Part shown: one piece after another, positions 2,556 through 24,000 of the stretch | Layout: every line of letters begins with the position of its first letter | How positions within the stretch are numbered: position 1 is the first letter of the stretch | Assembly (NCBI GenBank): GCA_947475175.1 | Contig: CANJLN010000001.1 | Location: 24,305 to 48,304 of the forward strand | Origin: Alphaproteobacteria bacterium | GTDB taxonomy: Bacteria > Pseudomonadota > Alphaproteobacteria > Paracaedibacterales > CAIULA01 | Length of the DNA stretch: 24,000 nucleotides | Direction: 5' to 3' | The notes under the pieces: model-generated | What the model was told of the DNA's origin: nothing | Database searches by the model: none | The model's input: only the letters and a program-made list of their open reading frames with translations | Position numbers and translations under genes: made by a program

Positions 2556-3347
2556 TTGCTAAAACTACCACCTCTTATCTTCGGCACATTCATCAAACGA
2601 TATAAACGATTTTTTGTGGATGTGCTGTTAGAGGATGGAATTGAAGTCACAGCCCATTGTCCCAATCCAGGCGCAATGTTGGGCGTTTTAGATCCTGGTA
2701 ACCGAGTAGCCATCACCCATAACAGCAATCCGGCCCGAAAATTATCCTATACCTGGCAATTGGTCGAGGCCGAGGGGACATGGATTGGCGTTAACACACA
2801 TTTGACCAATGAAATTGCGGCTGCGGTTTTGGAACAGCAATTAAGGCTGTCATCCTCGGACTTGTTCCGAGGATCTAAAGATTCTCGCAATAAATGCGAG
2901 AATGACACTATAGGCGGGGTGTGTAGAGGCGCTCTAACTGAACTTTCTCTCTATTCAACCATCCAACGTGAAGTCAAATATGGGATTAATTCTCGCATTG
3001 ATTTTTTGTTAACGGGCGAAGGTTTACCACCCTGTTATTTAGAGGTGAAAAACGTTCATCTGAAACGAAATGGTGTTGCTCAGTTTCCTGATTGCGTGAC
3101 AGCCAGAGGAGCCAAACACATGGCTGAATTAACATTGATGCGTCAGCAAGGCGTGCGATGTGTGATTTTGTATATTGTGCAGCGAAATGATGTCAAAGAA
3201 TTTGCCTTGGCTGCCGATATTGATCCTGCTTATGCCAAGGCCTCAGAAATTGCCAAAGCCAGCGGCGTTGAAATGCTAGCCTTGGGATGTGAGTTTGATT
3301 TAGAAAAAGATTATGTCTCCTTTTTCAACAGACTTTTAGTGAGTTAA
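2556..3347 (+). CDS. sfsA: Sugar fermentation stimulation protein A (SfsA) homolog carrying an in-frame ~30-aa insertion
   Basis: TTG start. The N-terminus LPPLIFGTFIKRYKRFFVDV...HCPNPGAM matches E. coli SfsA ([20 protein letters not shown]...HCPNTGAM). Later blocks are REVKYG-NSRIDFLL, YLEVKNV and FPDCVTARGAKHMAEL. The length is 263 aa against ~234 aa for E. coli (recalled), and the excess maps to the repeat at 2847-2907. Confidence 0.9.
   Translation: MLKLPPLIFGTFIKRYKRFFVDVLLEDGIEVTAHCPNPGAMLGVLDPGNRVAITHNSNPARKLSYTWQLVEAEGTWIGVNTHLTNEIAAAVLEQQLRLSSSDLFRGSKDSRNKCENDTIGGVCRGALTELSLYSTIQREVKYGINSRIDFLLTGEGLPPCYLEVKNVHLKRNGVAQFPDCVTARGAKHMAELTLMRQQGVRCVILYIVQRNDVKEFALAADIDPAYAKASEIAKASGVEMLALGCEFDLEKDYVSFFNRLLVS
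2847..2907 (+). repeat. Double-hairpin palindromic element (TGTCAT...ATGACA termini), copy 1, inside sfsA
   Basis: The sequence is CTGTCAT-CCTCGGActtgtTCCGAGG-ATCT-AAAG-ATTCTCGCAataaaTGCGAGAAT-GACA. It has two 9-bp stems and TGTCAT/ATGACA terminal inverted repeats. The first 30 nt are identical to 4148-4177 and to the reverse complement of 13800-13829. It is read in frame as LSSSDLFRGSKDSRNKCEND. Confidence 0.9.
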
Positions 3348-4106
3348 GTCGTACGTGACTACAACTCGAGGAGCATTATAAAACTTCTCGAATTCAGGAT
3401 TTCTATCAACTGACCAACCCATAGATTCCAACAATCCCAAATCTCTGAATTTAGGATCTAACAGCATGACCACATGATTGGGCAAAGCTGCATCCGTACA
3501 TTCGAGTTTGTGACTGTTCTCGAGAGGCATTAATTTTCCTTGAGCTCTTAAAGCTTTTGCAAGATCCACCATGCCCGTATAAATTTCTCTTCGCGCATCA
3601 TCTGTCAAAGTTGAAGGGATCAATGGTACAAAATTGAGAAGACCAAAGTTTCTAACTCTCTCATCATGTGCGTCATCTGTTCCTTCACCTACAGTTTGAC
3701 GAACGCCTAAACTTTTCCATTTGGCAATAATGGCAGCATGTTCTAATGGATCATAACCTTTACCAGCGGCAGCACCAAAAACAGGCATACGCCCCTGGAT
3801 AACCACTGGAAACAATGTTTCTCCTGGAACCATAAACACCATCATGTGATAAGAGTTGTTCTCTTTTTCTCGTCTGATGACATGAGCATCAACCGCACTG
3901 ATTCCAACCGATGGATTTGTTGGATCTTTTTTTAGATCATCTAGAAGAACTCCAAAAGCATCTTTATCACGCGACGTTATAGAACGCATGTGAAGCGAAT
4001 CTGTTTGACCATGTATCATGTTAAAATCAAATTGGGTTGTCGGTGCCGCTGCCATCGCTGGTATCCAGCTGAGGCATAGGGCTAATAGTAGAATTTTTTT
4101 GATCAT
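3336..4106 (-). CDS. Hypothetical exported protein (Sec-type signal peptide)
   Basis: 256-aa ORF with an N-terminal MIKKILLLALCLSWIPAMAAAP signal-like sequence. I recognise no domain. Its 3' end overlaps the sfsA 3' end by 12 nt (convergent). Confidence 0.55.
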   Translation of the reverse strand: MIKKILLLALCLSWIPAMAAAPTTQFDFNMIHGQTDSLHMRSITSRDKDAFGVLLDDLKKDPTNPSVGISAVDAHVIRREKENNSYHMMVFMVPGETLFPVVIQGRMPVFGAAAGKGYDPLEHAAIIAKWKSLGVRQTVGEGTDDAHDERVRNFGLLNFVPLIPSTLTDDARREIYTGMVDLAKALRAQGKLMPLENSHKLECTDAALPNHVVMLLDPKFRDLGLLESMGWSVDRNPEFEKFYNAPRVVVTYDLTH

Positions 4107-4147
4107 TTTTATTCCTTTAGTTGTTGCTTAAGTATCTTTCAACGCTA

Positions 4148-4233
4148 CTGTCATCCTCGGACTTGTTCCGAGGATCTTTTGAAGTTTGTTAACCCCTTCC
4201 TGAGATTCTCGGAACAAGTCCGAGAATGACAAG
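4148..4233 (+). repeat. Double-hairpin palindromic element, copy 2, full-length and intergenic
   Basis: The left arm CTGTCATCCTCGGACTTGTTCCGAGGATCT (4148-4177) is followed by a 25-nt spacer. The right arm AGATTCTCGGAACAAGTCCGAGAATGACAAG (4203-4233) is the near-perfect reverse complement of the left arm. The two arm differences (C to T and G to A) are compensatory within the right hairpin. Confidence 0.9.
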
Positions 4234-4350
4234 AGCAGATTCGGGAATGATAATATGCTCATTCTTATGCCCACTTCATCTGTGGAAATCAAGCCGATTT
4301 TTCTCTTATTGCCTTTGATCCATTGGATCGCTTATATTGTTGAGTATGTT

Positions 4351-4427
4351 CGGAACGTAGCGCAGCCTGGTAGCGCACTATTCTGGGGGGATAGGGGTCG
4401 TGGGTTCGAATCCCGTCGTTCCGACCA
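4351..4427 (+). tRNA. tRNA-Pro (anticodon GGG)
   Basis: Hand-folded cloverleaf. Acceptor stem CGGAACG/CGTTCCG is perfect. D arm is GCGC-AGCCTGGTA-GCGC. Anticodon arm is CTATT-CTGGGGG-GATAG, with U33, GGG and G37. T arm is GTGGG-TTCGAAT-CCCGT, discriminator A, encoded CCA. It is very similar to E. coli proK as I recall it. Confidence 0.9.
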
Positions 4428-5262: not shown

Positions 5263-6954
5263 TTACCTATAATCTTTTTCTAGAAAATCCTTCGGCTGAG
5301 TCTGGTACTTAGCAATTTGTCTTTTTTCAAAAGCTTCCTTAACCTTTTCATCAGCCAACGCCTTTAAGAGAACTTCACCAAATATAGGATCAGAACCAAC
5401 AATATCTTTTACTACTATCTTAGCTTGCTCTCTCAAAGTAGAGCCTCCCCCATCTAGAAAGTAATCGTCAATTGTATTTCTACTAAAAACAAAATCAATG
5501 CAATTCTTTCCTATCTCTAACCGAACCAAGAGGTTTCCAAGATGATCCATGCTGTTGTGCCATACAGTTTCTTTAACAAGATTCATTTTTTGCAGCTTTC
5601 CAGTATTTTCTCTTAAAGAGTATTTTTTCTTGGGATCATTTGGGCTTTGAGATAGTTCTATTATTTGTCCTTTATCTGCCATCCCAGAAAGCCTATTAAT
5701 GACAGAACGTTTACTAATACCAACACAACTGGTAATTTGGTGTGTGGACAGAGGCCCACAAAAAGTCAAAAGACCAAAGATAAATTGATCAAGATCATTC
5801 ATAATAAATTGACTCACCTTTTGCTTATAAAAGGTGACCCGAATGCGAGGGCCAATTTCTTCAAAATAGGGAGCTTCTAAGCCTGCTTCTAAACAAGCAT
5901 TAGTCATTCTTGTAATACCGCTGCCCCATTGCTCAATTAATCCTAACTCATTAAAAACACGAGCTATTATTGGATTGCGTAGTTTTGAAACACCCGCTTT
6001 CAAATCCTCAAACGTTAACCCCCATGGTAAAAGAGCACTATTTTCTATCTCAACTCGATCTTCAAAAACAGCAACTTTAATGGTAGCCCCTAAAGAATAG
6101 TCTGTATGGACAACAGCATTGATAATAGCTTCTCGCAAAGCCACTTTAGGAATTTCCCAGACTTCTTGATGCTGGATATTATTAATTTCCAACCCAACAC
6201 GCAGATTTCTTTTAACAAAGTTAAGAGTTTCCTCAACTGCTTGAGGAAAAAAAGTTGTAATTTTTTGAGTGTCTAAAATTTTTGTCTTTTCAAATCTCTC
6301 AAAAGCACCAACTTGAATCCAAGCATCAGGGAAAAACTTAAGACGGTCCTTTCCAAACAAAAGAATTCCGCCAACAGTTGGCATTAATTCTTTACCTTGC
6401 TTTACAATGATTCCAAGTGACACAAAATCACTTTGTTGTAGTTTCCTATGAGGTTCAAACAACTGTGTAGCAGCTGTGAAATCAATATCTTCACAGCTTG
6501 TTTCATAGCATGGCTCTTCATCAAAAGTTTTAGCGATGGTTGATCTTTCAATCACTTTTAGTAAAGCTGCATCAGCTTGCCGTGTTGTTGACCCTATTCG
6601 AACATATGTTGAGGTTTCTCTACCTTTTGATTTTATATAATGGGGCCTGACAGAACTTGGGTAAACCTCTACTGATATCAAATGAGTGTTTCTATAAGGA
6701 ATAACTTCTATATTGGGTAAAATTCTAGGCTCTATCATTTCATGAATTTTGTTGGAAAGTACCTCAGTGACTTTATGAGGATCTTCAACACCTACAATAT
6801 GTCGTGTTTTATCCTGCACCCCTATAATCACACGACCTCCAGAGGTATTAGAAAAAGCAATCAGTGTTGAGATAATCTTATCTTCAGATTTTATGTTCTC
6901 TTTAAATTCTAGGGTAGTTCCTTCATTTCCTTGAAGAATCTCATCAATTTTCAT
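5263..6954 (-). CDS. Schlafen/AlbA_2 (divergent AAA_4) plus HATPase_c_4 plus winged-HTH protein with an extra ~110-aa C-terminal domain
   Basis: The AlbA_2 signature is EGTTLEFKE...IAFSNTSGGRVIIGV...VRPHY...YVRIGSTT. The HATPase_c_4-like block is REAIINAVVHTDYS...NPIIARVF...WGSGITRM. An HTH-like segment (LSTHQITSCVGISKRSVINRL) follows, then an unassigned tail. The ORF track starts at a TTG at 7020. The ATG at 6954 (MKIDEILQGNEGTTLEFK) fits family N-termini better, so the start is uncertain. Confidence 0.75.
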   Translation of the reverse strand: MKIDEILQGNEGTTLEFKENIKSEDKIISTLIAFSNTSGGRVIIGVQDKTRHIVGVEDPHKVTEVLSNKIHEMIEPRILPNIEVIPYRNTHLISVEVYPSSVRPHYIKSKGRETSTYVRIGSTTRQADAALLKVIERSTIAKTFDEEPCYETSCEDIDFTAATQLFEPHRKLQQSDFVSLGIIVKQGKELMPTVGGILLFGKDRLKFFPDAWIQVGAFERFEKTKILDTQKITTFFPQAVEETLNFVKRNLRVGLEINNIQHQEVWEIPKVALREAIINAVVHTDYSLGATIKVAVFEDRVEIENSALLPWGLTFEDLKAGVSKLRNPIIARVFNELGLIEQWGSGITRMTNACLEAGLEAPYFEEIGPRIRVTFYKQKVSQFIMNDLDQFIFGLLTFCGPLSTHQITSCVGISKRSVINRLSGMADKGQIIELSQSPNDPKKKYSLRENTGKLQKMNLVKETVWHNSMDHLGNLLVRLEIGKNCIDFVFSRNTIDDYFLDGGGSTLREQAKIVVKDIVGSDPIFGEVLLKALADEKVKEAFEKRQIAKYQTQPKDFLEKDYR

Positions 6955-7063
6955 TTTTACAATCTTAAAAAACCTCAACATACTATGCATTTTAGTGTGA
7001 ACATACTGTGAAGTCAACAAAGATTTCAGTCGTTTTTATGGGAGTTTATAGCGACAACAATGT

Positions 7064-11025: not shown

Positions 11026-11325
11026 TTATGAAATTTGTATGCGATGGGTTCCTTTTTCTAAAACAAGGTGATAGCCACAAGCTTCTGCAATATTAACAAA
11101 GTTTTTCATTTTTAAGTCTTCTTGCTTGCCGGTGCGAAGTTTTTGAATGACAGCGGGGGATAATCCCACCTCATCTGCTAATCCTCTAACTGTTTTTTGC
11201 CCCTCTTCCATCAAGTCAACCAACAACTCTGACCACAGAAATTCTTTATAGCCCTCTTCAAAATCCTTTTTAAAGATAGGGTCTTTCATCTCTTGGTCAA
11301 ATGTCGATATTTTTTTTCTATTCAT
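11026..11325 (-). CDS. XRE/HTH-type antitoxin (HigA-like)
   Basis: 99 aa with an HTH segment (TVRGLADEVGLSPAVIQKLRTGK). It overlaps the upstream toxin gene by 8 nt, in the toxin-first order typical of HigBA/Gp49 modules. Confidence 0.7.
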   Translation of the reverse strand: MNRKKISTFDQEMKDPIFKKDFEEGYKEFLWSELLVDLMEEGQKTVRGLADEVGLSPAVIQKLRTGKQEDLKMKNFVNIAEACGYHLVLEKGTHRIQIS

Positions 11326-11704
11326 AATACGTCCCCTCTTTTAGTCGCCTTTGATAATTTTCTCTACAGGCTAAAGCCCGTTCTTTTTCACCCTGAGGCA
11401 ATTTCTGTTGTTTTTTTCTAAAGCCATTGGTAATGATAATTTTACTGTCCTGTATGAAAAAACACAGAAATCTCTCTGGATGAGGCTTAAAAGCGTAAAT
11501 TTGGTCACCCTCGTAATTAAATTTAGTTTTGTCACTAATTCTGCCGAAATCACCCATCCTCTTTGCCAGAAAAAGAAATTTCTTACGCTGACCAGTATCA
11601 AGACTTTGATAATAGTCTAAAGCTAAACTTTCTCCATTTTCAGAGACATACCATTCAACGGTAAAAGAATGGCCTTCGTAAGCGATGTATTGTTTTTCTT
11701 TCAT
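11318..11704 (-). CDS. Gp49-like (DUF891) RelE/HigB-superfamily toxin
   Basis: 128 aa. The pattern KFLFLAKRMGDFGRISDKTKF...YAFKPHPERFLCFFIQDSKIIITNGFRKKQQKLPQGEKERA matches the phage Gp49-like toxin family (...RilyfF...kiillthgF.KK..ktP..Ei..A). Confidence 0.75.
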   Translation of the reverse strand: MKEKQYIAYEGHSFTVEWYVSENGESLALDYYQSLDTGQRKKFLFLAKRMGDFGRISDKTKFNYEGDQIYAFKPHPERFLCFFIQDSKIIITNGFRKKQQKLPQGEKERALACRENYQRRLKEGTYYE

Positions 11705-11885: not shown

Positions 11886-12758
11886 ATGGATTTTCTTAAC
11901 ACACGCTCTCATTCAGCAGATTTAAGTTACGTTCGAGAAGCGATGAAAATGCCATTACTAGACAGAGAAAAAGAGATGAGCCTCGCTCGTGCTTGGTCAG
12001 AGGATCAAGATGAGAAAGCTTTTCAAGAACTGGTATGCGCTTACACGCGTCTTGTGGTCAGTGTAGCTTTGCGTTACCGCAACTATGGATTACCTGTCAG
12101 TGATTTAATTCAAGAAGGAAATATAGGGCTTTTACAAGCGGCTATTCGTTTTGACCACACTCGAGACGTGCGTTTTTCTACCTATGCAAAATGGTGGATA
12201 CGAGCTTGTATTCAAGAATTTATCTTAAGAAATTGGTCAATTGTGCGAACGGGTTCAACTTCAGCTCATAGAAACCTATTTTTCAATCTGAATCGCCTTC
12301 GCAATCAATTGCTTTCTCTCACAACAGACACCATGACATTACAAGACCAAACCGTTATTGCAGAACATCTTCATGTGACCATTCGACAAGTAGAGGAAAT
12401 GGAATACCGACTTGCTGGCCATGACCTGTCTTTAAGTCATCCCATCAGTGAATACGGAGAAGAAGATTGGCAGGATCTTTTACGTGATGTTCGACCAAAT
12501 CCAGAAGAAACAAGTGTTGAAGAACATTCAGAACAAAATCGTCTGCACTGGATTGAAGAAGCGATGGGCTGCCTGAATCCAAGAGAACAATACATCATCA
12601 CACAAAGACGTTTGACTGATTCTCCTTTGACTTTAGAAGAGCTTGGTAAAAAACTTTCCATCACCAAAGAGCGAGTTCGTCAACTTGAGGCAAAAGCTCT
12701 GAGACGCATGCGGTATTTCTTTATGGAGAGTATGTACGAGGTTCGCCAGACTCTTTGA
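11886..12758 (+). CDS. rpoH: RNA polymerase sigma-32 (heat-shock sigma factor RpoH)
   Basis: Sigma70-family regions are present: 2 (DLIQEGNIGLLQAAIRFD, STYAKWWIRACI) and 4.2 (LEELGKKLSITKERVRQLEAKALRRMR). The diagnostic RpoH box is also present (HRNLFFNLNRLR). Confidence 0.9.
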   Translation: MDFLNTRSHSADLSYVREAMKMPLLDREKEMSLARAWSEDQDEKAFQELVCAYTRLVVSVALRYRNYGLPVSDLIQEGNIGLLQAAIRFDHTRDVRFSTYAKWWIRACIQEFILRNWSIVRTGSTSAHRNLFFNLNRLRNQLLSLTTDTMTLQDQTVIAEHLHVTIRQVEEMEYRLAGHDLSLSHPISEYGEEDWQDLLRDVRPNPEETSVEEHSEQNRLHWIEEAMGCLNPREQYIITQRRLTDSPLTLEELGKKLSITKERVRQLEAKALRRMRYFFMESMYEVRQTL

Positions 12759-12888
12759 TACACCCTTCACCTTTCAAGAACCCTGTTCGTCAAAGTTCGG
12801 AAATCTTCGGTGCTCATGTATTTCCATATACATTCCGCTCCTCGACCCTTGTTTTCCTGCAGGTTTCTTGAAATTCATTGGGTATATA
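12758..12888 (+). repeat. ~130-bp palindromic-ended repeat element, copy A, intergenic
   Basis: It aligns by eye over its whole length with the reverse complement of 21688-21817, at roughly three-quarters identity with long identical runs such as AATCTTCGGTGCTC and CCGCTCCTCGACCCT. Its imperfect terminal inverted repeats are cACCCttcaccTTTCAAGAA and TTCTTGAAAttcattGGGTa. Confidence 0.85.
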
Positions 12889-12889
12889 A

Positions 12890-13504
12890 TTATTTATTTC
12901 TTTTCCAGGCGGCCCAAGCACCTATCATAATAATAATAAGCAGAATAACGCTTAGAAAATATTTCTGAACCGTTTCGAAATTCTCAATGATGCTGATCAT
13001 AACGTCCCCTAACAAATAACCGCTGATGCAGCTGACAAGTGTCCAGATGATCGCTGATAAAATATTTAGAGGAATATAACGCTGGGGGGAGATTCCAGCT
13101 GCACCAATCACAACGGCACTACTAATTCTAATACCATAAATAAAACGTGAAAGAATAATAAACCAAATATCGTATTTGTGAAGAAGTCTAAAAGCTTTCT
13201 CTGAAGATTTTTTTAAACTTGGAAAACGTTCAAATATTGCAGGCCCATAAGCACGCCCCACAAAATACAACACTTGATCAGCGATCAATGTACCAAAAAA
13301 CGCAATAATCATAATTTTGTAAAGGGAGAGATAACCAGCGTAAGCCATAGAACTCGCCGTTAAAATAACAGACTCGCCTTCGATTAAAGATCCCAAAAAA
13401 ACTGCCCAGTATCCCCATTCTTGTACAAAGGCAATAAACTGTTCCAACTTTTTATCCTGATTTTGGGCGTTTCCACCTAAGGAGAATAGCAAAGATTGAA
13501 CCAA
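12890..13504 (-). CDS. dedA: DedA/SNARE-associated family inner-membrane protein
   Basis: Family blocks are GYWAVFLGSLIEGESVILTA, YFVGRAYG and LSRFIYGIR, with multiple TM helices. The annotated ATG overlaps the ccmF/H 3' end by 53 nt, so the true start may be further downstream. Confidence 0.75.
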   Translation of the reverse strand: MVQSLLFSLGGNAQNQDKKLEQFIAFVQEWGYWAVFLGSLIEGESVILTASSMAYAGYLSLYKIMIIAFFGTLIADQVLYFVGRAYGPAIFERFPSLKKSSEKAFRLLHKYDIWFIILSRFIYGIRISSAVVIGAAGISPQRYIPLNILSAIIWTLVSCISGYLLGDVMISIIENFETVQKYFLSVILLIIIMIGAWAAWKRNK

Positions 13505-15656
13505 ACAACAACGCCCAAGGCAGCAACCACAAAGGAATTGTGTGCAATTTTAAAGGAGGTTTCAAAGTGATATTTTCTCCATATTTTTTTATTAAGTCCT
13601 GAAGGACACCTTCTTCTGATTGTCCTTCTTTTAGAGATTGAAAAATATCTTGTTTCATAAGGATTGCTTGATCACTTTGTGAATCCTCTAAGACTTGCCC
13701 TGCGCAGACTGGGCAAATGATTTTCTTATAAAGAGAATGTGCTGTTTCTTCAGTATTGCTTGCATAAGAAGCCCCCCCTATAAGCAACAGGCAGATGACA
13801 GATCCTCGGAACAAGTCCGAGGATGACAGAGTAGAGTTAGAGGATGATAAAAACGAAAACCGTTTGATTGCCCCTAAAGCACCCCCTACAACCATTAAGA
13901 TAATCCCGAACCATAATAAATTCATAAAAGGTTTATAATGAACTTTAAGTTCTATAGTTTCGTTTGAATCATCAATAAGGGCTGTATAGATGTGTGAAAA
14001 AAGAGTGGAATAAATCGCTGTTTCATTGTGAATGATTTTCTGCGTTTCGTAATATCGTTTTTCTGGAACCAACTGCGTTATCTCTTTTCCTGAATGGGAG
14101 ATGTTTAGAACAGCTTGATGAGCCGTATAATTGGGACCTTGTTTTATTTGTAAATTTTTAAATGCGCCTGTGTAGCCTGCAATATTAAAAGACTCCTCTT
14201 TTTTAAGAAAGACATGCTGTTCAATTTCTCCATAAGTGGAGCACACCATGCCCAAAACACATAAACCCAAACCAAAATGAGCAAAAATCATCGAAAGAGT
14301 TTTAAGATTGATTGGATGTGATTTCAGATAAAGAAGAGTACTGATCATTACCCAAACTGATAATCCTGTGGCAAAGAAAGCAAGAAACGAAGGATGTGGT
14401 AATAACCACCAACACAACAAGACGGAAAGAAGCGAAGCACTAAAAGCCGACAAAAGCTTTTCGTAATGTTTCCAAATGCCGACCCCCATCAATCCTAACA
14501 AAGGCAGCATCAAAGGAATAAACGTTGCTTGAAAATAAGGTGTGCCGATTGTAATGCTTTTTCCAAAATAAGAGAGAATCAGCGGATAGAGAATGGATAT
14601 AAAAATGGTCGCCGTGCCACAAAATAAAAATACGTTATTAAGTGCTATCATGCCGGGGCGTGACCAAGGTGAAGAGATGGGTAAGCCTTGAAAAATAGAG
14701 AATCTCCATATCCACAAAACGATAGAGGGAAGCGTGAAAGTACATAAAAGAATGAGCAACAAGACACCCCGTTCAGGATCAACGGCAAAACTATGGACTG
14801 ATGTTAAAAGTCCAGAGCGAACAAAAAATAGAGAAAAAAGACATAATCCAAAGGTGAGGATGCCTAACAAAAGAGATACGCGTGTCAAAGTTTGCTGCTT
14901 TTGAGCGCAAATAATACTGTGCAAGAAAGCCGTTGCTGTTAACCAAGGAAGAAGGGCCGCATTTTCAACCGGATCCCAGAACCAAAACCCACCCCATCCC
15001 AGTTCATAATAAGCCCAAAAACTGCCCAAAGCTAAGCCCGCGGTCATAAAACTCCACGAAACAAGCATCCAAAAACGAAGCGCTGAAATATGATTTATCG
15101 AGAGAGTTCCCTGCAACAAAGCAACTACACATAAGGCAAAGGGGACGCTGCAACCAACATAACCCGCATAGAGAATGGGGGGATGGATAGCCAAGCTTGG
15201 GTCTTGCAGCAAGGGGTTCAGATCATTGCCCTCTAACAAAGGAATTTCTAAGGTGATAAACGGATCGCTAGCAATCAGAACAAAAATAAGAAATCCTAAA
15301 ATAATCGAGGTTAAAATGCGACCCGTTGGTTCTTTGAGATTTTGAGGGAGGAAATAGGAAGAAAGACTGGTGTAAAAGCTTAAGATCAACACCCATAGAA
15401 GCATTGATCCCTCGTGATTTCCCCAAACACCACTGATTTTATAGAGAAGGGGTTTTGATGTATGAGAATGCTGAACAACATTCAGATACGAAAAATCTGA
15501 GGTGACATGCGCCCACATAAGTGTCCCAAAGGCGATGGCGATCCAGAAAAATATGACATGAGAAAATACTGGTCTGAATTTTTTTAAAAGGATGTGACTG
15601 ACGCAAAACAGCGAAGCTATGAGTAGGCATGCTTGACCGAAGAGAGCGGAGGTCAT
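13452..15656 (-). CDS. ccmF: Cytochrome c-type biogenesis protein CcmF (heme lyase subunit) fused in one ORF to a CcmH/CycL-like C-terminal module
   Basis: The CcmF hallmarks are WGNHEGSMLLW, the WWD-type motif GWGGFWFWDPVENAAL and many TM helices through about aa 600. Residues ~620-734 carry a signal-like segment (VICLLLIGGASYA), then the CcmH pattern IICPVCAGQVLEDSQSDQA...KKYGENITLKPPL plus a terminal TM helix. The joint is encoded by the repeat at 13795-13829. Confidence 0.85.
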   Translation of the reverse strand: MTSALFGQACLLIASLFCVSHILLKKFRPVFSHVIFFWIAIAFGTLMWAHVTSDFSYLNVVQHSHTSKPLLYKISGVWGNHEGSMLLWVLILSFYTSLSSYFLPQNLKEPTGRILTSIILGFLIFVLIASDPFITLEIPLLEGNDLNPLLQDPSLAIHPPILYAGYVGCSVPFALCVVALLQGTLSINHISALRFWMLVSWSFMTAGLALGSFWAYYELGWGGFWFWDPVENAALLPWLTATAFLHSIICAQKQQTLTRVSLLLGILTFGLCLFSLFFVRSGLLTSVHSFAVDPERGVLLLILLCTFTLPSIVLWIWRFSIFQGLPISSPWSRPGMIALNNVFLFCGTATIFISILYPLILSYFGKSITIGTPYFQATFIPLMLPLLGLMGVGIWKHYEKLLSAFSASLLSVLLCWWLLPHPSFLAFFATGLSVWVMISTLLYLKSHPINLKTLSMIFAHFGLGLCVLGMVCSTYGEIEQHVFLKKEESFNIAGYTGAFKNLQIKQGPNYTAHQAVLNISHSGKEITQLVPEKRYYETQKIIHNETAIYSTLFSHIYTALIDDSNETIELKVHYKPFMNLLWFGIILMVVGGALGAIKRFSFLSSSNSTLSSSDLFRGSVICLLLIGGASYASNTEETAHSLYKKIICPVCAGQVLEDSQSDQAILMKQDIFQSLKEGQSEEGVLQDLIKKYGENITLKPPLKLHTIPLWLLPWALLFGSIFAILLRWKRPKSG
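13795..13829 (-). repeat. Single-hairpin copy of the palindromic module, copy 3, at the ccmF/ccmH junction
   Basis: The minus strand reads CTGTCATCCTCGGACTTGTTCCGAGGATCTGTCAT. The first 30 nt are identical to 2847-2876 and 4148-4177, and the hairpin core is bracketed by a direct CTGTCAT repeat. It is translated in the same frame as in sfsA (LSSSDLFRGS). Confidence 0.9.
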
Positions 15657-15720
15657 ACTGGGAGATCCGGTTTGTTATTGCGAAACTCGCATGGCTGCGA
15701 CCAACCGATCATATGGTTTT

Positions 15721-15791
15721 TGGATCGGCACGCTTCGCTCGCGATGACGGTAGGGGCGTCTTTGCGAGGAGCGTAGAGACGTGGCAATCCA
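15721..15791. repeat. Imperfect ~30-bp-arm palindrome (REP-like)
   Basis: TGGATCGGCACGCTTCGCTCGCGATGAC-ggtagggg-GTCTTTGCGAGGAGCGTAGAGACGTGGCAATCCA. The arms are complementary at both ends (TGGAT.G.CACG / CGTG.C.ATCCA and GCGA.GAC / GTC.TTGCG) with internal indels. Confidence 0.6.
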
Positions 15792-15842
15792 AGTATCTTG
15801 AAATGTCGTGGGTATACCAAGGTGTCACAACTTAAAAAAACA

Positions 15843-15992
15843 CTGTCATCCCGGAACCTAGTCGAACTGCGACTTGCCGCTAGTGAGATTTGATATCCGG
15901 GATCCAGAAAAACTATAAAAATGGCCTGGATTCCTGATAAGTGGCTCGTTCTCCAAGCTAAAGCTTGGACTCGCCTACTTTCTGGAATGACA
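15843..15992. repeat. ~150-bp MITE-like element with CTGTCATCCCGGAA / TTCTGGAATGACA termini and a nested inner palindrome
   Basis: The outer imperfect inverted repeats are at 15843-15856 and 15980-15992. The inner inverted repeat is ATCCGGGATCCAG (15895-15907) / CTGGATTCCTGAT (15926-15938). It shares the CTGTCAT terminus with the hairpin family. Confidence 0.65.
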
Positions 15993-16330
15993 ATAGGCAT
16001 ACAAATATTTTTGCAAAAATTATCCATTTGTTAACTATTTTGCATTATTGTTATAATTACAGACGTTTGTATTGGCGCCCACAGAAAGGTACCCGCCCTG
16101 TTTTTTTTCGACAGGTTTAGCGGCATGGGGGAGGATTTTATCCAATTCCAGCCGGAGTCTGGGGTAGTGGGTGGCCCCGCCCTTCTGAGGGTGGGGGACT
16201 GTATAGGAAAAGTTAATTTTTGGTTAATTTCCGATACAATTTTAGTGAATTTCTTCTTGAGTCCACAGAAGCTGCTCTCATGCCTATCCTTGTTCTTGCA
16301 ATATTGTGTTTTATTCCAAATCATCATGCT

Positions 16331-18881: not shown

Positions 18882-19273
18882 ACTAGCTTTAACTTATGTC
18901 CTTAGTTGTTCAACTCCAACATATCATATATTCAGAGAATCAACAAATAGACCAAAAGGGCAGCAACAATTCCCGAAGAGGATTAGGTGTAATTTTTGGT
19001 TAAGGTTCAGTGAATAACACCCACTAAATAGCTGGGGCAAAAACAAGAACGGGTTGCATACATAACTTAATAACACTGGGTTTAGTCGAGACTTGCAAAA
19101 AATTTATCACAAAACCCTCTAAATTGCTCGCTTTATCAACCTTCCGGGAATTGATGATCTTTTGATTTGACGTTTTTTAAACACTTCAACAATTTGAAAA
19201 TGAACCCTCTTGATTTCTTCCAGAGTTATTGCCTAGGTTATATCGTAAGGATTTTTAAATTTAGTTATTTCAT

Positions 19274-19957
19274 ATGCCTCAGTCAGGTCAAAAAACAATC
19301 ATTGCGCCATCGCTCCTCTCTGCGGATCTTTTGAATCTACAGACAGAAATTGATCTTATTACCAAAGCAGGTGCTGACTGGCTTCATCTTGATATCATGG
19401 ATGGGCATTTTGTGCCCAATCTAACTTTTGGTCCTGAATTTGTAAGGCAAATTAAAAAGATTTCTCAATTGCCAATCGATGTACACTTGATGATTTCGCC
19501 TGCAGATGCTTTTATTGATGCCTTTGCCAAAGCCGGCGCCAGTTACATAACGATTCATCCTGAGGCTGATTTTCACCCGCATCGAACGTTGCAAAAAATT
19601 AAAAGCCATGGTGTTAAAGCTGGCATCGCTTTGAGTCCGGGGACACCCATTGAAACGGTGTATCCTTTGCTAGAAATAATCGATCTCATTTTAATTATGA
19701 CTGTTAATCCAGGATTTAGCGGACAGAAGTTTATAGCCCATCCTCTTGAAAAATTAAAAGCCTTAAGAAAGTTAATTGATACACATAAATATCCTATATT
19801 ATTAGAAGTCGATGGCGGTGTTGATAAAACAACAGCCAAAGAAATTACCTGTGCGGGCGCTGACGTTCTTGTGACGGGTCAGTATGTTTTTTCAAAGGAT
19901 ATGCCTGTATCTTCTGACGTTTATAAATCTCGTATTGAAGATCTAAGGAAACAATGA
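19274..19957 (+). CDS. rpe: Ribulose-phosphate 3-epimerase
   Basis: Motifs are APSLLSADLLNL, HLDIMDGHFVPNLTFGP, MTVNPGFSGQKF and EVDGGV. Confidence 0.92.
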   Translation: MPQSGQKTIIAPSLLSADLLNLQTEIDLITKAGADWLHLDIMDGHFVPNLTFGPEFVRQIKKISQLPIDVHLMISPADAFIDAFAKAGASYITIHPEADFHPHRTLQKIKSHGVKAGIALSPGTPIETVYPLLEIIDLILIMTVNPGFSGQKFIAHPLEKLKALRKLIDTHKYPILLEVDGGVDKTTAKEITCAGADVLVTGQYVFSKDMPVSSDVYKSRIEDLRKQ

Positions 19958-21606
19958 GTCAACATCCCGTCTTGTCTCAGTTCAGTTATTTTTTGCATCG
20001 ACTGGCGCAAAAGTATCGTCTGTATGGGGTAACTCTTTTAGGGCGGTCTACTTCTGAATTATTAACGATCCCATCAGATCCCTGGCCTGGGAATTTTCAA
20101 GTGGCTCACACAATACTCGAGGGAGCGTTTCCTTTTCGTGGGCAACTGATCCCTCTTAAAGATTGTTTGGATTATTTAGGGCGGCCTGATCGGTGCCCAA
20201 GTCCTCTTCTGCCCAGATTGCACGGGTTTGAATGGCTCAAGGATTTGCGTGCTATCAGTACGAACCCCAGCAGGAAAAGAGCACGTCAACTGATTATGCA
20301 CTGGATCAATCAGAATCATTCTTGGTCTACAAAGAGCTGGCTATCTCCTGCTTGGCGCCCTGACATTACAGCCAATCGCCTATCGAGCTGGATTTCTGTT
20401 TATGATTTCTTTGGAGCCAGTGCGGATGATTTTTTTAAGCAAGCCTTTTTTAGAAGCTTGATGAAGCAGTACCGCTATTTGCGTCGCATTTACACAAGCA
20501 TCACCGATCCTTTGCAGGCTTTCATCGTCTTAAAAAGCCTCATTGCTTGTGCTTGCACTTTACCAAGACAAAAAGGGAGGATCCCTTCTTTTGTGAACAG
20601 TCTTCAAAAAGTTCTAAAAGCGCAGATTTTGGCTGATGGAGGGCATGTCAGTCGATCCCCAGCTTTGCAGCTCATTATTTTGCGAGATCTGATTGATATT
20701 CGTTCCCTTTTAAAAAATATAGAAGCTGAAGATCCTCCTTTTTTACAACAAGCCATTAATGTGATGGCGCCTATGGTCAGACTCTTCCGGCATGGGGACG
20801 GGGGATTAGCTGATTTTGCAGGCAATATCGATCCCTGTTCTCTAAGCTTTGATCCTGAAAATATTTCACCTGCCGTTGTTGATATGGCTTTGTCTTTGGC
20901 CGATGTACGAGGGCGTCCTCCTGGTCGTGCGCCTTATATGGGCTACGAAAGATGCATAGGGAAGTCAGGGTTGATTCTACTGAATGTCAAACCTTCTTAT
21001 AATGAAGTGCCGCTTTTAACAACAGAGGGAGAGCCAGGCGTTAATATTTTAGATTTCGAATGGAGTGTTGGCAGGCAACGAATTCTTAGACGTTCTGATC
21101 TGATCGTTCAGCTTTCCGATCATTCCTGGCTTAAGATTGATAATGACCAGGGAAGTCTTGCGCTGAAAAGACACAGCAAAGATGGAAATGGCTATCTTTC
21201 AGCTGACTTTGATCAGTTCATTCGAGGCGTTTCTTATCGACACCAGCGACAACTTTATCTAGGCGGAGAAGAAGGGGACTTTAGAGGACATGATATCTTT
21301 ACTCTTTCTCAACCAGCAATGGCCGCAGTCCGGTTCATTTTTTCTAGGAATGTCGAAGTTTTATCGCAAACCACAAAGAAAATTAAAATTAAAGTCTATC
21401 CATCTGCTGCAATTGCAGGAAAAGGAGAGTCAAAAAAAACAGTGCAAACATGGAGTTTTATCACAAAAGGAGCGAGCGATGCCCTTTGGCAACATTGCAA
21501 AGAAACAGGGTTGCCGTATTTGATGCTTTTGACACCCCTTGTAAAAGAAGAGGCGCAAACGATCAAATGGGCCTTTCGTTTGGATGAAAATATTGAGAAA
21601 AGGTAA
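19954..21606 (+). CDS. Heparinase II/III-like family protein (conserved alphaproteobacterial protein of unknown role)
   Basis: 550 aa. The start overlaps the rpe stop (ATGA). The blocks ADGGHVSRSPALQ and FRHGDGGLADFAGN resemble the heparinase II/III-like family as I recall it from alphaproteobacterial annotations. This is recollection, not a verified match. Confidence 0.5.
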   Translation: MSQHPVLSQFSYFLHRLAQKYRLYGVTLLGRSTSELLTIPSDPWPGNFQVAHTILEGAFPFRGQLIPLKDCLDYLGRPDRCPSPLLPRLHGFEWLKDLRAISTNPSRKRARQLIMHWINQNHSWSTKSWLSPAWRPDITANRLSSWISVYDFFGASADDFFKQAFFRSLMKQYRYLRRIYTSITDPLQAFIVLKSLIACACTLPRQKGRIPSFVNSLQKVLKAQILADGGHVSRSPALQLIILRDLIDIRSLLKNIEAEDPPFLQQAINVMAPMVRLFRHGDGGLADFAGNIDPCSLSFDPENISPAVVDMALSLADVRGRPPGRAPYMGYERCIGKSGLILLNVKPSYNEVPLLTTEGEPGVNILDFEWSVGRQRILRRSDLIVQLSDHSWLKIDNDQGSLALKRHSKDGNGYLSADFDQFIRGVSYRHQRQLYLGGEEGDFRGHDIFTLSQPAMAAVRFIFSRNVEVLSQTTKKIKIKVYPSAAIAGKGESKKTVQTWSFITKGASDALWQHCKETGLPYLMLLTPLVKEEAQTIKWAFRLDENIEKR

Positions 21607-21664
21607 CTGCTCTTAATCTGTTCATGCTTCTTGATAAAAATGCTTTTGCCCTTTAAATATAAAA

Positions 21665-24000
21665 CATGCAAACATCTTCATCTCCATTTATACCCAATAA
21701 GATTCAAGAAGCTGGGCAGGAGCTCGAGGGTCGAGGAGCGGAGTGTATAGATGATACTCGAGCACCGAAGATTCCCGAAGAGCGACGAACCCAGAGCTTG
21801 AATCATGAAGGGTATATACATTTACGCCTGCATAGTGCTTATTCGCTAGCAGAGGGAGCTATCCACACCAAAAACATCGCAAAGCTTTGCCAAGGCTATC
21901 AAATGCCCGCTATTGGTATTACAGACACAAACAATTTGTTTGGCGCTCTTGAAATTGCGATGGCTTGCGCGGAGGAGGGAATTCAACCCATTATCGGTTG
22001 CCAGATCCAAATGCTTTTTAGTGACAAACATCCCGTCCGTCCCATTGTGCTTCTTGCGCAAAGTGAACAGGGATATAAAAACCTTCTCAAACTTGTCAGT
22101 CATTTCTATTTGAGGCAACAAAATTTAAATGAACCGCATATTACACTCAGTGAATTAGAAGAACGCAATCAAGGGCTTATTTTATTAACAGGGGGACATC
22201 TTGGTCCTGTGGGACATCTTTTGAACGCTCAAGAGAAAGATGAAGCAATTGATCTTTTAAAAACGCTTCAAAAAATATTTGGAGACCGTCTTTATATTGA
22301 ATTGATGCGTCACGGTCTGGTTGAGCAAAAGCGGATTGAACCTCAGTTCTTAGAGCTTGCTCTTGAATACAATATTCCAATCGTTGCAACGAATGATGTG
22401 TTTTTTGATAAGCCGAGTATGTATGAAGCTCATGATGCGCTTTTATGCATTGCTGAGGGAAGCTATATCAGTCAGGACAATCGTCGTCGTGTGACACCGC
22501 ATCATTATTTCAAAAACAGTGAAGAGATGAGCAAGCTATTTGCTGATCTGCCTGAAGCTATTCAAAACACAAGCGTTATTGCTCAGCGTTGTCATTTTAT
22601 GCCGCTTCCCCGTAAACCGATTTTGCCTCCTTTTCTAACTGAGTCAGGTAGAAGTGAGACAGATGAATTGCGAGAGCAAGCTCACCTTGGGTTGGAAAAA
22701 CGCTTGGAAAAAGAGGTTTACCCTCTGCATACCGATCAAAGTCAGCATGAAGCACTCAAAAAAAACTACTTTGAACGATTAGAATATGAACTTGAAATTA
22801 TCGAAAAGATGGGCTTTCCAGGTTATTTTCTGATTGTTGCTGATTTTATCAAATGGGCTAAAAACCAAGGCATTCCCGTTGGTCCTGGTCGTGGATCCGG
22901 CGCTGGGTCATTGGTTGCATGGGTTTTAACGATCACAGATATGGATCCAATACGTTTTAACCTTCTCTTTGAGCGTTTTTTAAATCCAGAACGCGTCTCT
23001 ATGCCTGACTTTGATATCGACTTTTGTCAGGATCGCCGAGATGAGGTGATCAGTTATGTGCGGGATAAATATGGCGAGGATAAGGTTGCGCACATTATCA
23101 CTTTTGGTAAATTGCAGGCTCGTGCTGTTCTTCGTGACGTTGGTCGCGTGATGCAAATGCCATACGGACAGGTGGATCGCATTTCCAAGCTTGTGCCTAA
23201 TAACCCAGCCAATCCGGTAACTTTAGAGCAGGCTTTGGAGCTGGAGCCCGCTCTAAAACAACAACAAGAAGAAGATGAAACTGTTGCAAAATTAATTGAT
23301 ATCGGCATGAAGCTCGAAGGGCTTTATCGTCATGCATCAACTCATGCTGCAGGTGTTGTGATTGGCGATCGTCCTTTGGATGATCTCGTTCCTCTCTATA
23401 AAGATGAGAAATCAACATTGGCAGCGACGCAATTTAGTATGAAATATGTAGAAGCTGCAGGTCTTTTGAAATTTGACTTTTTGGGCTTGAAAGCTCTGAC
23501 CGTCATTCAAAAATGCTGTGATCTAGTACAAAAAACTGGAATTGATCTTGATATCAGTACCATTCCTTTAGATGATCCAAAAACATTTGAGCTTCTTTGT
23601 CGCGTCGAAGTGGTTGGTGTGTTCCAGCTTGAAAGTGCGGGCATGCGTGATGTTTTGCGCAAACTAAAACCAGATCGTTTTGAAGATTTGATTGCACTTG
23701 TGGCTCTTTACCGTCCAGGGCCGATGGACGACATTCCAAGATATCTTGCCTGTAAGCATGGGGAAGAGGCCGTTACCTATTTGCAGCCCGCTCTACAACC
23801 AATTCTCGAGCCAACTTATGGTGTTATGGTTTACCAAGAACAGGTTATGGAAATTGCTCAGGTGTTAGGAGGGTATACACTTGGCGCTGCTGATTTGTTG
23901 CGTCGTGCGATGGGTAAAAAGATTAAATCAGAGATGGATGATCAGCGGGCTTTGTTTACAGAGGGAGCCGTTAAAAATGGCGTTGAGCCCTCAGTTGCCA
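21665..24000 (+). CDS. dnaE: DNA polymerase III alpha subunit DnaE, 3'-truncated by the window edge; the start codon is ambiguous (ATG 21665 or in-frame TTG 21797)
   Basis: The frame is open from 21665 to the window end. It is not in the ORF track because no stop is reached. The PHP domain is YIHLRLHSAYSLAEGAI...ITDTNNLFGALE...IQPIIG, followed by GFPGYFLIVADFI, PVGPGRGSGAGSLV, PDFDIDFCQ and HAAGVVI. Confidence 0.92.
21688..21817 (-). repeat. ~130-bp palindromic-ended repeat element, copy B, inverted relative to copy A and inside the open 5' end of dnaE
   Basis: The reverse complement aligns end to end with 12758-12888. It encodes PFIPNKIQEAGQELEGRGAECIDDTRAPKIPEERRTQSLNHEGY in the dnaE frame without a stop. 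Confidence 0.85.

Follow-up and report, generated by a model that had tools for sequence, protein, structure and literature searches.

We analysed a 24,000-nucleotide stretch of an alphaproteobacterial metagenome assembly (GCA_947475175.1, contig CANJLN010000001.1, positions 24,305 to 48,304 of the forward strand; hereafter the window), in which the gene sfsA carries an in-frame insert of 30 codons. The host is an amoeba-symbiont-like alphaproteobacterium of the family Paracaedibacteraceae, and the window has a G+C content of 41%. The insert is very probably a head-head heterodimer of CGTC-tagged repetitive extragenic palindromic (REP) elements, which landed in a recent ancestor of this Paracaedibacteraceae species. 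The superfamily and its in-frame behaviour have already been described; the host family and the target genes are new, and in the literature we searched we found no report of such elements in Paracaedibacter or Holosporales. The features of the gene and its insert are as follows.

2556-3347, + strand: sfsA, 263 residues from a TTG start, with Pfam SfsA_N at residues 13-79 and the SfsA RE (nuclease) domain at residues 125-250.
2844-2933, + strand: the sfsA insert, 90 nt or 30 codons, encoding RLSSSDLFRGSKDSRNKCENDTIGGVCRGA, defined by ortholog alignment and codon-level comparison.
2848-2877, + strand: CGTC-type REP unit A, read as SSSDLFRGS.
2878-2907, - strand: CGTC-type REP unit B, read on the + strand as KDSRNKCEND.
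2908-2933, + strand: the insert tail CTATAGGCGGGGTGTGTAGAGGCGCT, 26 nt, outside the REP dimer.

We aligned 14 SfsA homologues drawn from a search of 5.8 billion proteins. An earlier reading of the bare DNA (hereafter the sequence-only reading) had judged this SfsA to be about 30 residues longer than that of E. coli, and the alignment confirms an excess of exactly 30 residues, RLSSSDLFRGSKDSRNKCENDTIGGVCRGA(L), missing from 13 of 13 orthologs at 52-81% identity. Only P0001, which is 97% identical to the window SfsA, also has the block. The bounds of the insert were set by codon-level comparison with empty sites (L062 and L063) from the sister genome DAHVSZ01 (GCA_027328625.1). Where the sequence-only reading had described a 61-bp element at 2847-2907, the sequence and the two hairpins stand but the extent does not: the insert comprises 4 nt (AGGC, 2844-2847), a 60-nt dimer (2848-2907) and the 26-nt tail. 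The reading frame is intact, with 30 stop-free codons added to a full-length open reading frame (ORF); gene callers place the start at a GTG 20 codons further in, which yields 243 residues. The frame used is one of three open frames of the dimer and one of two open frames of the 90-nt insert. We rejected intein and intron readings, as the insert is 90 nt long and shows neither an intron model match nor splicing motifs.

Positions 2847-2907 read C-TGTCAT-CCTCGGA-CTTGT-TCCGAGG-ATCTAAAGAT-TCTCGCA-ATAAA-TGCGAGA-ATGACA and fold as two hairpins, each with a 9-bp stem and a 5-nt loop (-18.2 kcal/mol and z = -6.9 as DNA; z = -4.7 as RNA). The dimer core consists of two abutting 30-nt units in inverted orientation, with no spacer. 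Unit A is composed of a tag TGTC (2848-2851), a stem arm ATCCTCGGA (2852-2860), a loop CTTGT (2861-2865), the second stem arm TCCGAGGAT (2866-2874) and a tail CTA (2875-2877). Unit B has its tag TGTC at 2907-2904, followed by the stem arm ATTCTCGCA, the loop TTTAT, the stem arm TGCGAGAAT and a tail CTT; it belongs to the unit type of A, inverted and diverged, with the loop/stem variant CGCATTTATTGCG, so that A and B form a head-head heterodimer with the tags outside. The unit can be read in three ways, as VILGLVPRI, DPRNKSEDD or ILGTSPRMT. The 30-mer CTGTCATCCTCGGACTTGTTCCGAGGATCT (2847-2876) recurs at 100% identity in direct orientation at 4148-4177 and inverted at 13800-13829, the two further loci that the sequence-only reading had counted. 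As 100 dinucleotide shuffles gave zero matches to the 30-mer, chance does not account for the repeat, which is real. The RNA fold also shows a weak GU-rich third hairpin, to which we attached no meaning.

The CGTC-tagged REP superfamily was defined by Di Nocera, De Gregorio & Rocco 2013, BMC Genomics 14:522 (PMC3733652). CGTC REPs are described there as having (i) a stem of 8-9 bp, the first two positions of which are complementary A and T; (ii) a loop of 4-5 nt; and (iii) an unpaired 3-nt tail, mostly CCA. Most form head-head dimers with the tags outside, and heterodimers are frequent in CGTC-2 and CGTC-3. They occur mainly in Alphaproteobacteria, and also in Spirochaetes, Bacteroidetes, Chlorobi and Thermotogae; they have no associated transposase, the only transposase associations being fortuitous. 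CGTC and GTAG REPs lie wholly inside ORFs in several species, more than half of the intragenic inserts are dimers or groups that encode 20-30 residues, and in-frame CGTC singles and dimers are already tabulated. The CGTC-3 peptides of Additional file 3 include VIPGLDPGIH...DGRVKPGHD in pyrroline-5-carboxylate reductase, VMAGLDPAIH...NPRVKPAGD in DNA polymerase I, and MAGPSPAMT. Two Rickettsia palindromic elements (RPEs) of R. conorii are also assigned to the superfamily, RPE-4 as CGTC-4 and RPE-6 as CGTC-1 (PMC3733652).

The units of the window largely share this anatomy. TGTC stands ahead of all five canonical units, the unit A stem has 9 bp, and the loops, CTTGT or TTTAT, have 5 nt. Both the sfsA dimer and a second dimer at 4149-4231 have their tags outside, and the sfsA dimer pairs two stem/loop subtypes. 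The tails are CTA, CTT, CTG and CTC. A 9-bp stem with a 5-nt loop places the unit in CGTC family 3 or 4, and matches in Rhizobium, described below, favour CGTC-3.

We scanned one genome per prokaryotic species for the 28-mer TGTCATYCTCGSAYTTRTTSCGAGRATC and found it in at least 58 loci of other genomes, predominantly of Alphaproteobacteria among the matches listed. The hosts among these matches include Hyphomicrobiaceae, Kiloniellaceae, Pelagibius, Primorskyibacter, Neomegalonema, Tepidamorphus, Paracaedibacteraceae and gut metagenome-assembled genomes (MAGs). The usual layout in the same set is TGTCAT-hairpin-ATCCATG ... spacer ... CATGGAT-hairpin-ATGACA; two stem positions that were free in the search pattern are complementary in 65/67 and 67/67 units, and the tail is CCA in 44/67. 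Plasmid matches were all from Rhizobium/Rhizobiaceae and allies, and all in unannotated DNA. The unit on R. etli p42c has the parts CGTC, ATCCTCGGC, CTTGT, GCCGAGGAT and CTA; compared with unit A, only the closing stem pair and the tag (CGTC, not TGTC) are changed, and a second unit completes a tags-outside dimer that lies between two convergent genes. The 28-mer was also seen in MAGs labelled Dehalococcoidales, Marinimicrobia and Treponema (L004, L024, L036, L047, L049, L054), which could be real spread, as PMC3733652 reports for Spirochaetes, or mis-binned contigs.

Other searches were negative. The dimer junction had 0 matches in a JGI metagenome scan, the collection evidently being without this species, and the exact DNA strings of the element had no match in our literature search. 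Rfam at the gathering threshold returned only two tRNAs for the window; at E <= 1 it added only sub-threshold plant miRNA-precursor models and FtrB, which we judged to be generic long-hairpin similarity. We also considered Br-REP1/2 of Bradyrhizobium (PMC5082802), which are similar in style, but their sequence is not that of the sfsA element.

Further copies of the unit, or relatives of it, lie at three places in the window.

4149-4178 (+ strand) and 4202-4231 (- strand): intergenic head-head dimer with a 23-nt spacer, folding as one long hairpin (z = -9.2).
13797-13853, - strand: in-frame insert in ccmFH, 19 codons (FLSSSNSTLSSSDLFRGSV) versus 3 codons (KIT) in DAHVSZ01 (L062), from BLASTP and codon comparison.
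15845-15990, + strand: larger CGTC-like dimer with long loops, TGTCAT-CCCGGA...TCCGGG-ATCCAG ... CTGGAT-TCCTGA...TTCTGGA-ATGACA.

The 4149-4231 dimer is located between an ORF at 3336-4106 (- strand) and a tRNA gene at 4351-4424. At this site the sister strain L059, 98.4% identical to the window, has a different CGTC dimer, TGTCAT-CCCCGA...TCGGGG-ATCCA / TGGAT-TCCCGC-CTGC-GCGGGA-ATGAC, and the window keeps an apparent remnant of an L059-type dimer (GATTC..GGGAATGA) beside its own. As a result 4111-4284 is not alignable with L059:11496-11622 in strains that otherwise match closely. The different dimers and the remnant point to fast turnover at a hot spot, and from its sequence 4111-4284 looks like a REP insertion hot spot adjoining the tRNA gene.

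The dimer of sfsA itself, junction included, is also present at an unlinked intergenic site in the sister strain, L059:12603-12659 (58 aligned positions, 98.3%, one gap), where it carries the tag CGTC and lacks the 26-nt tail. Its pairing of A with B is found in the relative L052 as well. Because the dimer recurs with its junction at the unlinked L059 site, and there without the tail, we conclude that the dimer is what gets copied. Together with the empty ortholog sites, the copies elsewhere, this intergenic one included, bear out the view of the sequence-only reading that a repeat, and not native coding DNA, makes up the insert. Close by, at window 5220 / L059:12557, synteny with the sister strains is lost; window 5263-7020 is a Schlafen AlbA_2 / HATPase_c_4 gene, and L059 has there an unrelated ORF after the sfsA-type CGTC dimer.

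The third copy of the repeat (13799-13828) is not intergenic, which corrects the sequence-only reading; it lies in frame inside ccmFH, a CcmF-CcmH fusion ORF (13452-15656, - strand, 734 residues) with the domains Cytochrom_C_asm, CcmF_C and CcmH. Pfam CcmF_C extends to residue 597 and CcmH begins at 633, and the REP copy falls inside the linker between them. Since DAHVSZ01 (L062) shares the fusion, the fusion predates the REP insertion. The ccmFH insert contains one full CGTC unit, whose reading, LSSSDLFRGS, uses the sfsA frame, and ahead of it a degenerate half-unit, TTATCATCCTCTAAC. In gut alphaproteobacterial MAGs a half-unit (GTCATTCTCGGACAC...) often stands 10-15 nt upstream of full units (L015, L016, L031, L040, L043, L046, L048, L055), the layout seen at window 13829-13850, which suggests either a larger composite element or repeated nested insertion.

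A third protein with such an insert is UbiG of DAHVSZ01 (L045:4891-5799, - strand). Its in-frame insert of about 50 residues (...SLDPRNKSEDDMRAPSNTMEKSDDKKIAQKTPLSSSSYMSSSDLFRGSKN...) contains two CGTC units with the tags inside and lies between the conserved N-terminal segment and S-adenosylmethionine (SAM) motif I. Residues 5-51 and 111-285 of the protein are the parts that align with E. coli UbiG (4KDC). The RPE-like behaviour that the sequence-only reading had proposed is thus found in three genes, sfsA, ccmFH and DAHVSZ01 ubiG, each with an in-frame insert that preserves the ORF. Over about 39 kb of the contig, 2/4 CGTC loci are intragenic. We also screened all loci for intragenic units by their open stretches, and the result was mostly uninterpretable, as long stop-free stretches are common in GC-rich genomes; UbiG of L045 was the only case confirmed. 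In gut alphaproteobacterial MAGs the units lie about 50 codons upstream in open frames, probably within 5' untranslated regions.

The larger dimer at 15845-15990 sits in about 670 nt of non-coding DNA (15657-16330) between ccmE and ccmF; in L062, ccmE overlaps ccmF. Units resembling CGTC-1, with an 8-bp stem, a 4-nt loop (ATTCCCGC-GCAG-GCGGGAAT) and the tail CCA, occur at L059:11595 and L062:2588/2639. Three short ORFs on the - strand, 2747-2908, 4128-4292 and 15653-16027, are translations of the repeats (SLDPRNKSEDDS, LSFSDLFRES...ILGTSPRMT); the last, of 124 residues, is probably spurious.

We next consider the state of the host gene. The sfsA insert is present in ERZ27280227, ERZ27280268 and ERZ27280323 (98.4% identical to the window) and in scaffold_3521 of ERZ28612979, which is the window's own source or an identical contig. 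That four independent metagenome assemblies carry it excludes an artefact of assembly. Comparison of sfsA in the two lineages gives 11.5 synonymous and 7.5 non-synonymous differences, and the gene's ratio of non-synonymous to synonymous polymorphism (pN/pS) against the 98% strain is 0.20, next to 0.05, 0.00 and 0.28 for its neighbours. The protein retains the residues that do not vary in the family alignment. This ratio and these residues indicate, on few substitutions, that sfsA has been constrained since the insertion. Within the insert, 3/90 nt differ between the two strains; two of these change amino acids and one breaks a stem pair in L059.

An AlphaFold2 model of SfsA (mean predicted local distance difference test score (pLDDT) 86, predicted template-modelling score 0.84) places the insert directly after helix 81-96, which joins the OB fold to the nuclease domain. 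The three 10-residue blocks over residues 101-130 have mean pLDDT values of 55, 50 and 66, against about 80-97 in the remaining protein. The insert is flanked by the two segments, residues 5-89 and 122-250, to which the structure of E. coli SfsA (4DAP) aligns. As modelled, the insert sits in a low-confidence predicted loop at the OB/nuclease domain boundary.

Several observations weigh against reading the insert as a CGTC heterodimer. The 4-nt head and the 26-nt tail of the insert lie outside REP sequence and are single-copy; a search of the window and some 0.55 Mb of related loci for CTATAGGCGGGGTGTGTAGAGGCGCT gave no second instance. Given these 4 + 26 non-REP nt, what happened at sfsA was more than the plain entry of a 60-nt dimer. 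CGTC copying may have left the tail as a footprint. We considered a target palindrome, since GCCTATAGGC would be palindromic with the dimer taken out, yet other copies gave no support for it. Next, the unit tails in this genome are CTN and not the consensus CCA, so this feature agrees only loosely, and the preference for CGTC-3 over CGTC-4 is tentative. The search for a mobilising enzyme was negative: four RAYT/TIRYT proteins, taken from Additional file 5 of PMC3733652, had no tblastn match in the window or the same 0.55 Mb. Finally, the pN/pS of sfsA rests on about 19 substitutions only, and the presence of the 30 residues in mature SfsA is predicted from DNA.

How would a repeat come to lie inside a gene of this kind? 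The element would be selfish or neutral passenger DNA without a function for SfsA. Among many insertions, only those whose length is a multiple of three, that are stop-free and that fall in tolerant loops would persist, and such a survival filter would leave the frame-preserving, loop-sited insertions for us to see in genes. The filter would be weaker in intracellular bacteria with small populations, as is argued for RPEs. Papers by Ogata and Claverie reportedly make the same survival argument for RPEs.

With regard to how the unit spreads, we consider it possible, and put it forward tentatively, that a trans-acting enzyme, RAYT or a different HUH-like one, copies it by recognising the tagged hairpin on single-stranded DNA. 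HUH-like single-strand copying would fit the lack of a target-site duplication, none of which was visible by eye at five copies (sfsA, 4149-4231, L059:12603, L052 and R. etli). We are more doubtful of a stronger proposal, that CGTC REP dimers are currently mobile here as REPIN-like replicative units and form a second, independent 'Rickettsia-like' case. It is prompted by identical dimers at unlinked loci and by the dimer swap between 98%-identical strains, and as part of it at least two unrelated small palindromic classes may have been fixed repeatedly in frame, in sfsA, ccmFH, dnaE (see below) and ubiG.

A different enzymology would apply if the element were a classical miniature inverted-repeat transposable element (MITE) derived from a DDE-transposase insertion sequence (IS), with the termini TGTCAT.../...ATGACA, moving by cut-and-paste with a target-site duplication. 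The perfect 6-nt inverted termini and the behaviour of the dimer as one unit are what this predicts, and a true TA-target MITE exists in the same window. We nevertheless regard it as unlikely. No inspected copy has a target-site duplication, and single units occur alone in ccmFH and at many loci of the scan, which transposition dependent on terminal inverted repeats (TIRs) does not predict. No IS with such ends (TGTCATCCTCGG) was seen, and the transposase associations in PMC3733652 are only fortuitous. The absence of a duplication, the lone units and the negative RAYT/TIRYT search argue against a DDE-type MITE and weakly fit a hairpin-specific single-strand mechanism.

It is also improbable that the insert has been co-opted, with the extra loop or the pair of mRNA hairpins at the domain boundary now serving SfsA, be it by lengthening the inter-domain linker, by pausing translation to aid folding or through mRNA stability. 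The insert does lie exactly at the OB/nuclease junction of a gene under purifying selection, and sfsA, ccmFH and UbiG all use one peptide frame (SSSDLFRGS / D[PS]RNK[SC]E[ND]D). Orthologs at 75-81% identity, however, work without the insert, and the strain differences within it include two amino-acid changes and a broken stem pair. Survival of hydrophilic stop-free frames only would itself produce a common frame, and with three or four events nothing beyond that can be shown.

The sequence-only reading had gone further and raised the possibility that the element, unlike any RPE, represents a separate family of protein-invading DNA. We find a new lineage-specific family of this kind very improbable. 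The absence of an Rfam family match at the gathering threshold and the silence of the literature, both on the exact strings and on Paracaedibacter, would be expected of one; but most of the defining CGTC features are present, with the tail loosely so, and the exact 28-mer is spread over many other genomes, with near-identical units on Rhizobium plasmids. The claim fails because the unit belongs to the CGTC superfamily that contains RPE-4 and RPE-6, and for which intragenic in-frame units are tabulated (PMC3733652). Lastly, an assembly artefact, or an sfsA that is a dead pseudogene so far free of stops, is barely credible: all the sequences are metagenome assemblies known from DNA alone, but the insert recurs in four of them with 3 substitutions between lineages, in a full-length ORF that keeps the invariant family residues and has a pN/pS close to its neighbour's 0.28.

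The window holds a second, unrelated class of small repeat.

12758-12886, and inverted at about 21694-21819: MITE-like repeat of about 126 nt, with TIRs TATACCC..GATTCAAG and a TA-rich target.

The first copy begins at the stop codon of a sigma-70 gene. The second lies 9 codons into dnaE, where it adds 42 in-frame residues just before the HxH motif of the PHP domain, and it is missing from the 98%-identical L059: the window protein begins MQTSSSPFI-[42 aa]-HLRLHSAYS, versus MQTSSSPFIHLRLHSAYS in L059, and the gene calls are 1188 and 1146 residues, respectively. An in-frame TTG inside this copy could serve as an alternative start codon. The MITE core gave 1 short locus in the metagenome scan of the JGI collection, which evidently lacks this species. 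In the same part of the window, 19194-23458 maps inverted, upstream of the L059 Na/H exchanger gene. Genes for a Gp49-like/HigB-type toxin and a helix-turn-helix (HTH) antitoxin occur at window 11318-11704 (-) and on the contig downstream (L067 15276-16790).

These results extend to the Paracaedibacteraceae, a further intracellular alphaproteobacterial lineage, what is seen with RPEs, the tolerance of selfish hairpin DNA within essential proteins; the repeats involved are of a known superfamily. They support regarding protein invasion as a general result of REP activity under weak selection, and not as a peculiarity of Rickettsia. Such inserts lengthen proteins, create spurious ORFs and 'hypothetical proteins' (2747-2908, 4128-4292, 15653-16027) and can lead annotation and alignment astray. 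The polymorphisms between strains may provide a way into the copying of CGTC REPs, for which no transposase is known; if the dimers are indeed currently mobile, strain-resolved metagenomes of this species could expose the CGTC enzyme and its insertion rules. We consider four aspects mildly notable: the density of in-frame events, the strain-level turnover, the 26-nt tail and the in-frame MITE in dnaE.

Among known systems, the closest are the CGTC-3/4 REPs, with which the element shares the unpaired CGTC/TGTC tag, the AT-first 9-bp stem, the 5-nt loop, a tail of 3 nt (though not its usual sequence CCA), heterodimers with the tags outside, alphaproteobacterial hosts and in-frame singles and dimers. 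No adjacent transposase is known for CGTC REPs, and here the RAYT/TIRYT search of the window and related loci was negative. Their peptides VIPGLDPGIH, DGRVKPGHD and MAGPSPAMT are GC-rich in-register analogues of VILGLVPRI, DPRNKSEDD and ILGTSPRMT here. The sfsA element differs in being AT-rich (loops CTTGT/TTTAT, closing pair A-T), in its CTN tails and in having dimer units that abut without a spacer, and Paracaedibacteraceae lie outside the PMC3733652 survey.

RPEs resemble the present case as palindromic repeats that lie in frame in housekeeping genes of an intracellular alphaproteobacterium, encode short loop peptides and leave the genes intact; the host here is not Rickettsia. RPE-1, the classic protein-invading RPE, is about 100-150 nt long and is not a simple REP dimer. 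Eight such elements, RPE-1 to RPE-8, were reportedly described by Ogata and colleagues in 2000 and 2002. RPE-4 and RPE-6 share the CGTC tag and the hairpin plan, a relation that rests on their equation with CGTC-4 and CGTC-1 in PMC3733652.

Like the REPINs of the REPIN/RAYT system and the bacterial interspersed mosaic elements (BIMEs) of E. coli, the sfsA element is an inverted doublet that can fold as one long hairpin and is the copied unit, and its pairing of differing hairpin subtypes recalls the Y and Z REPs of BIMEs. The REPIN/RAYT system is said to have been set out by Bertels and Rainey in 2011. Its tag is GTAG, in contrast to CGTC/TGTC here; no RAYT-like ORF was seen in the window or the 0.55 Mb of related loci, and no RAYT is associated with CGTC REPs in PMC3733652. 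A more distant parallel is provided by QMITE1/2 of Coxiella burnetii (PMC5896051), which have a gammaproteobacterial host and other sequences and are described as MITEs, but which are likewise small palindromic repeats of an intracellular bacterium, in some cases located in frame inside ORFs or lengthening these.

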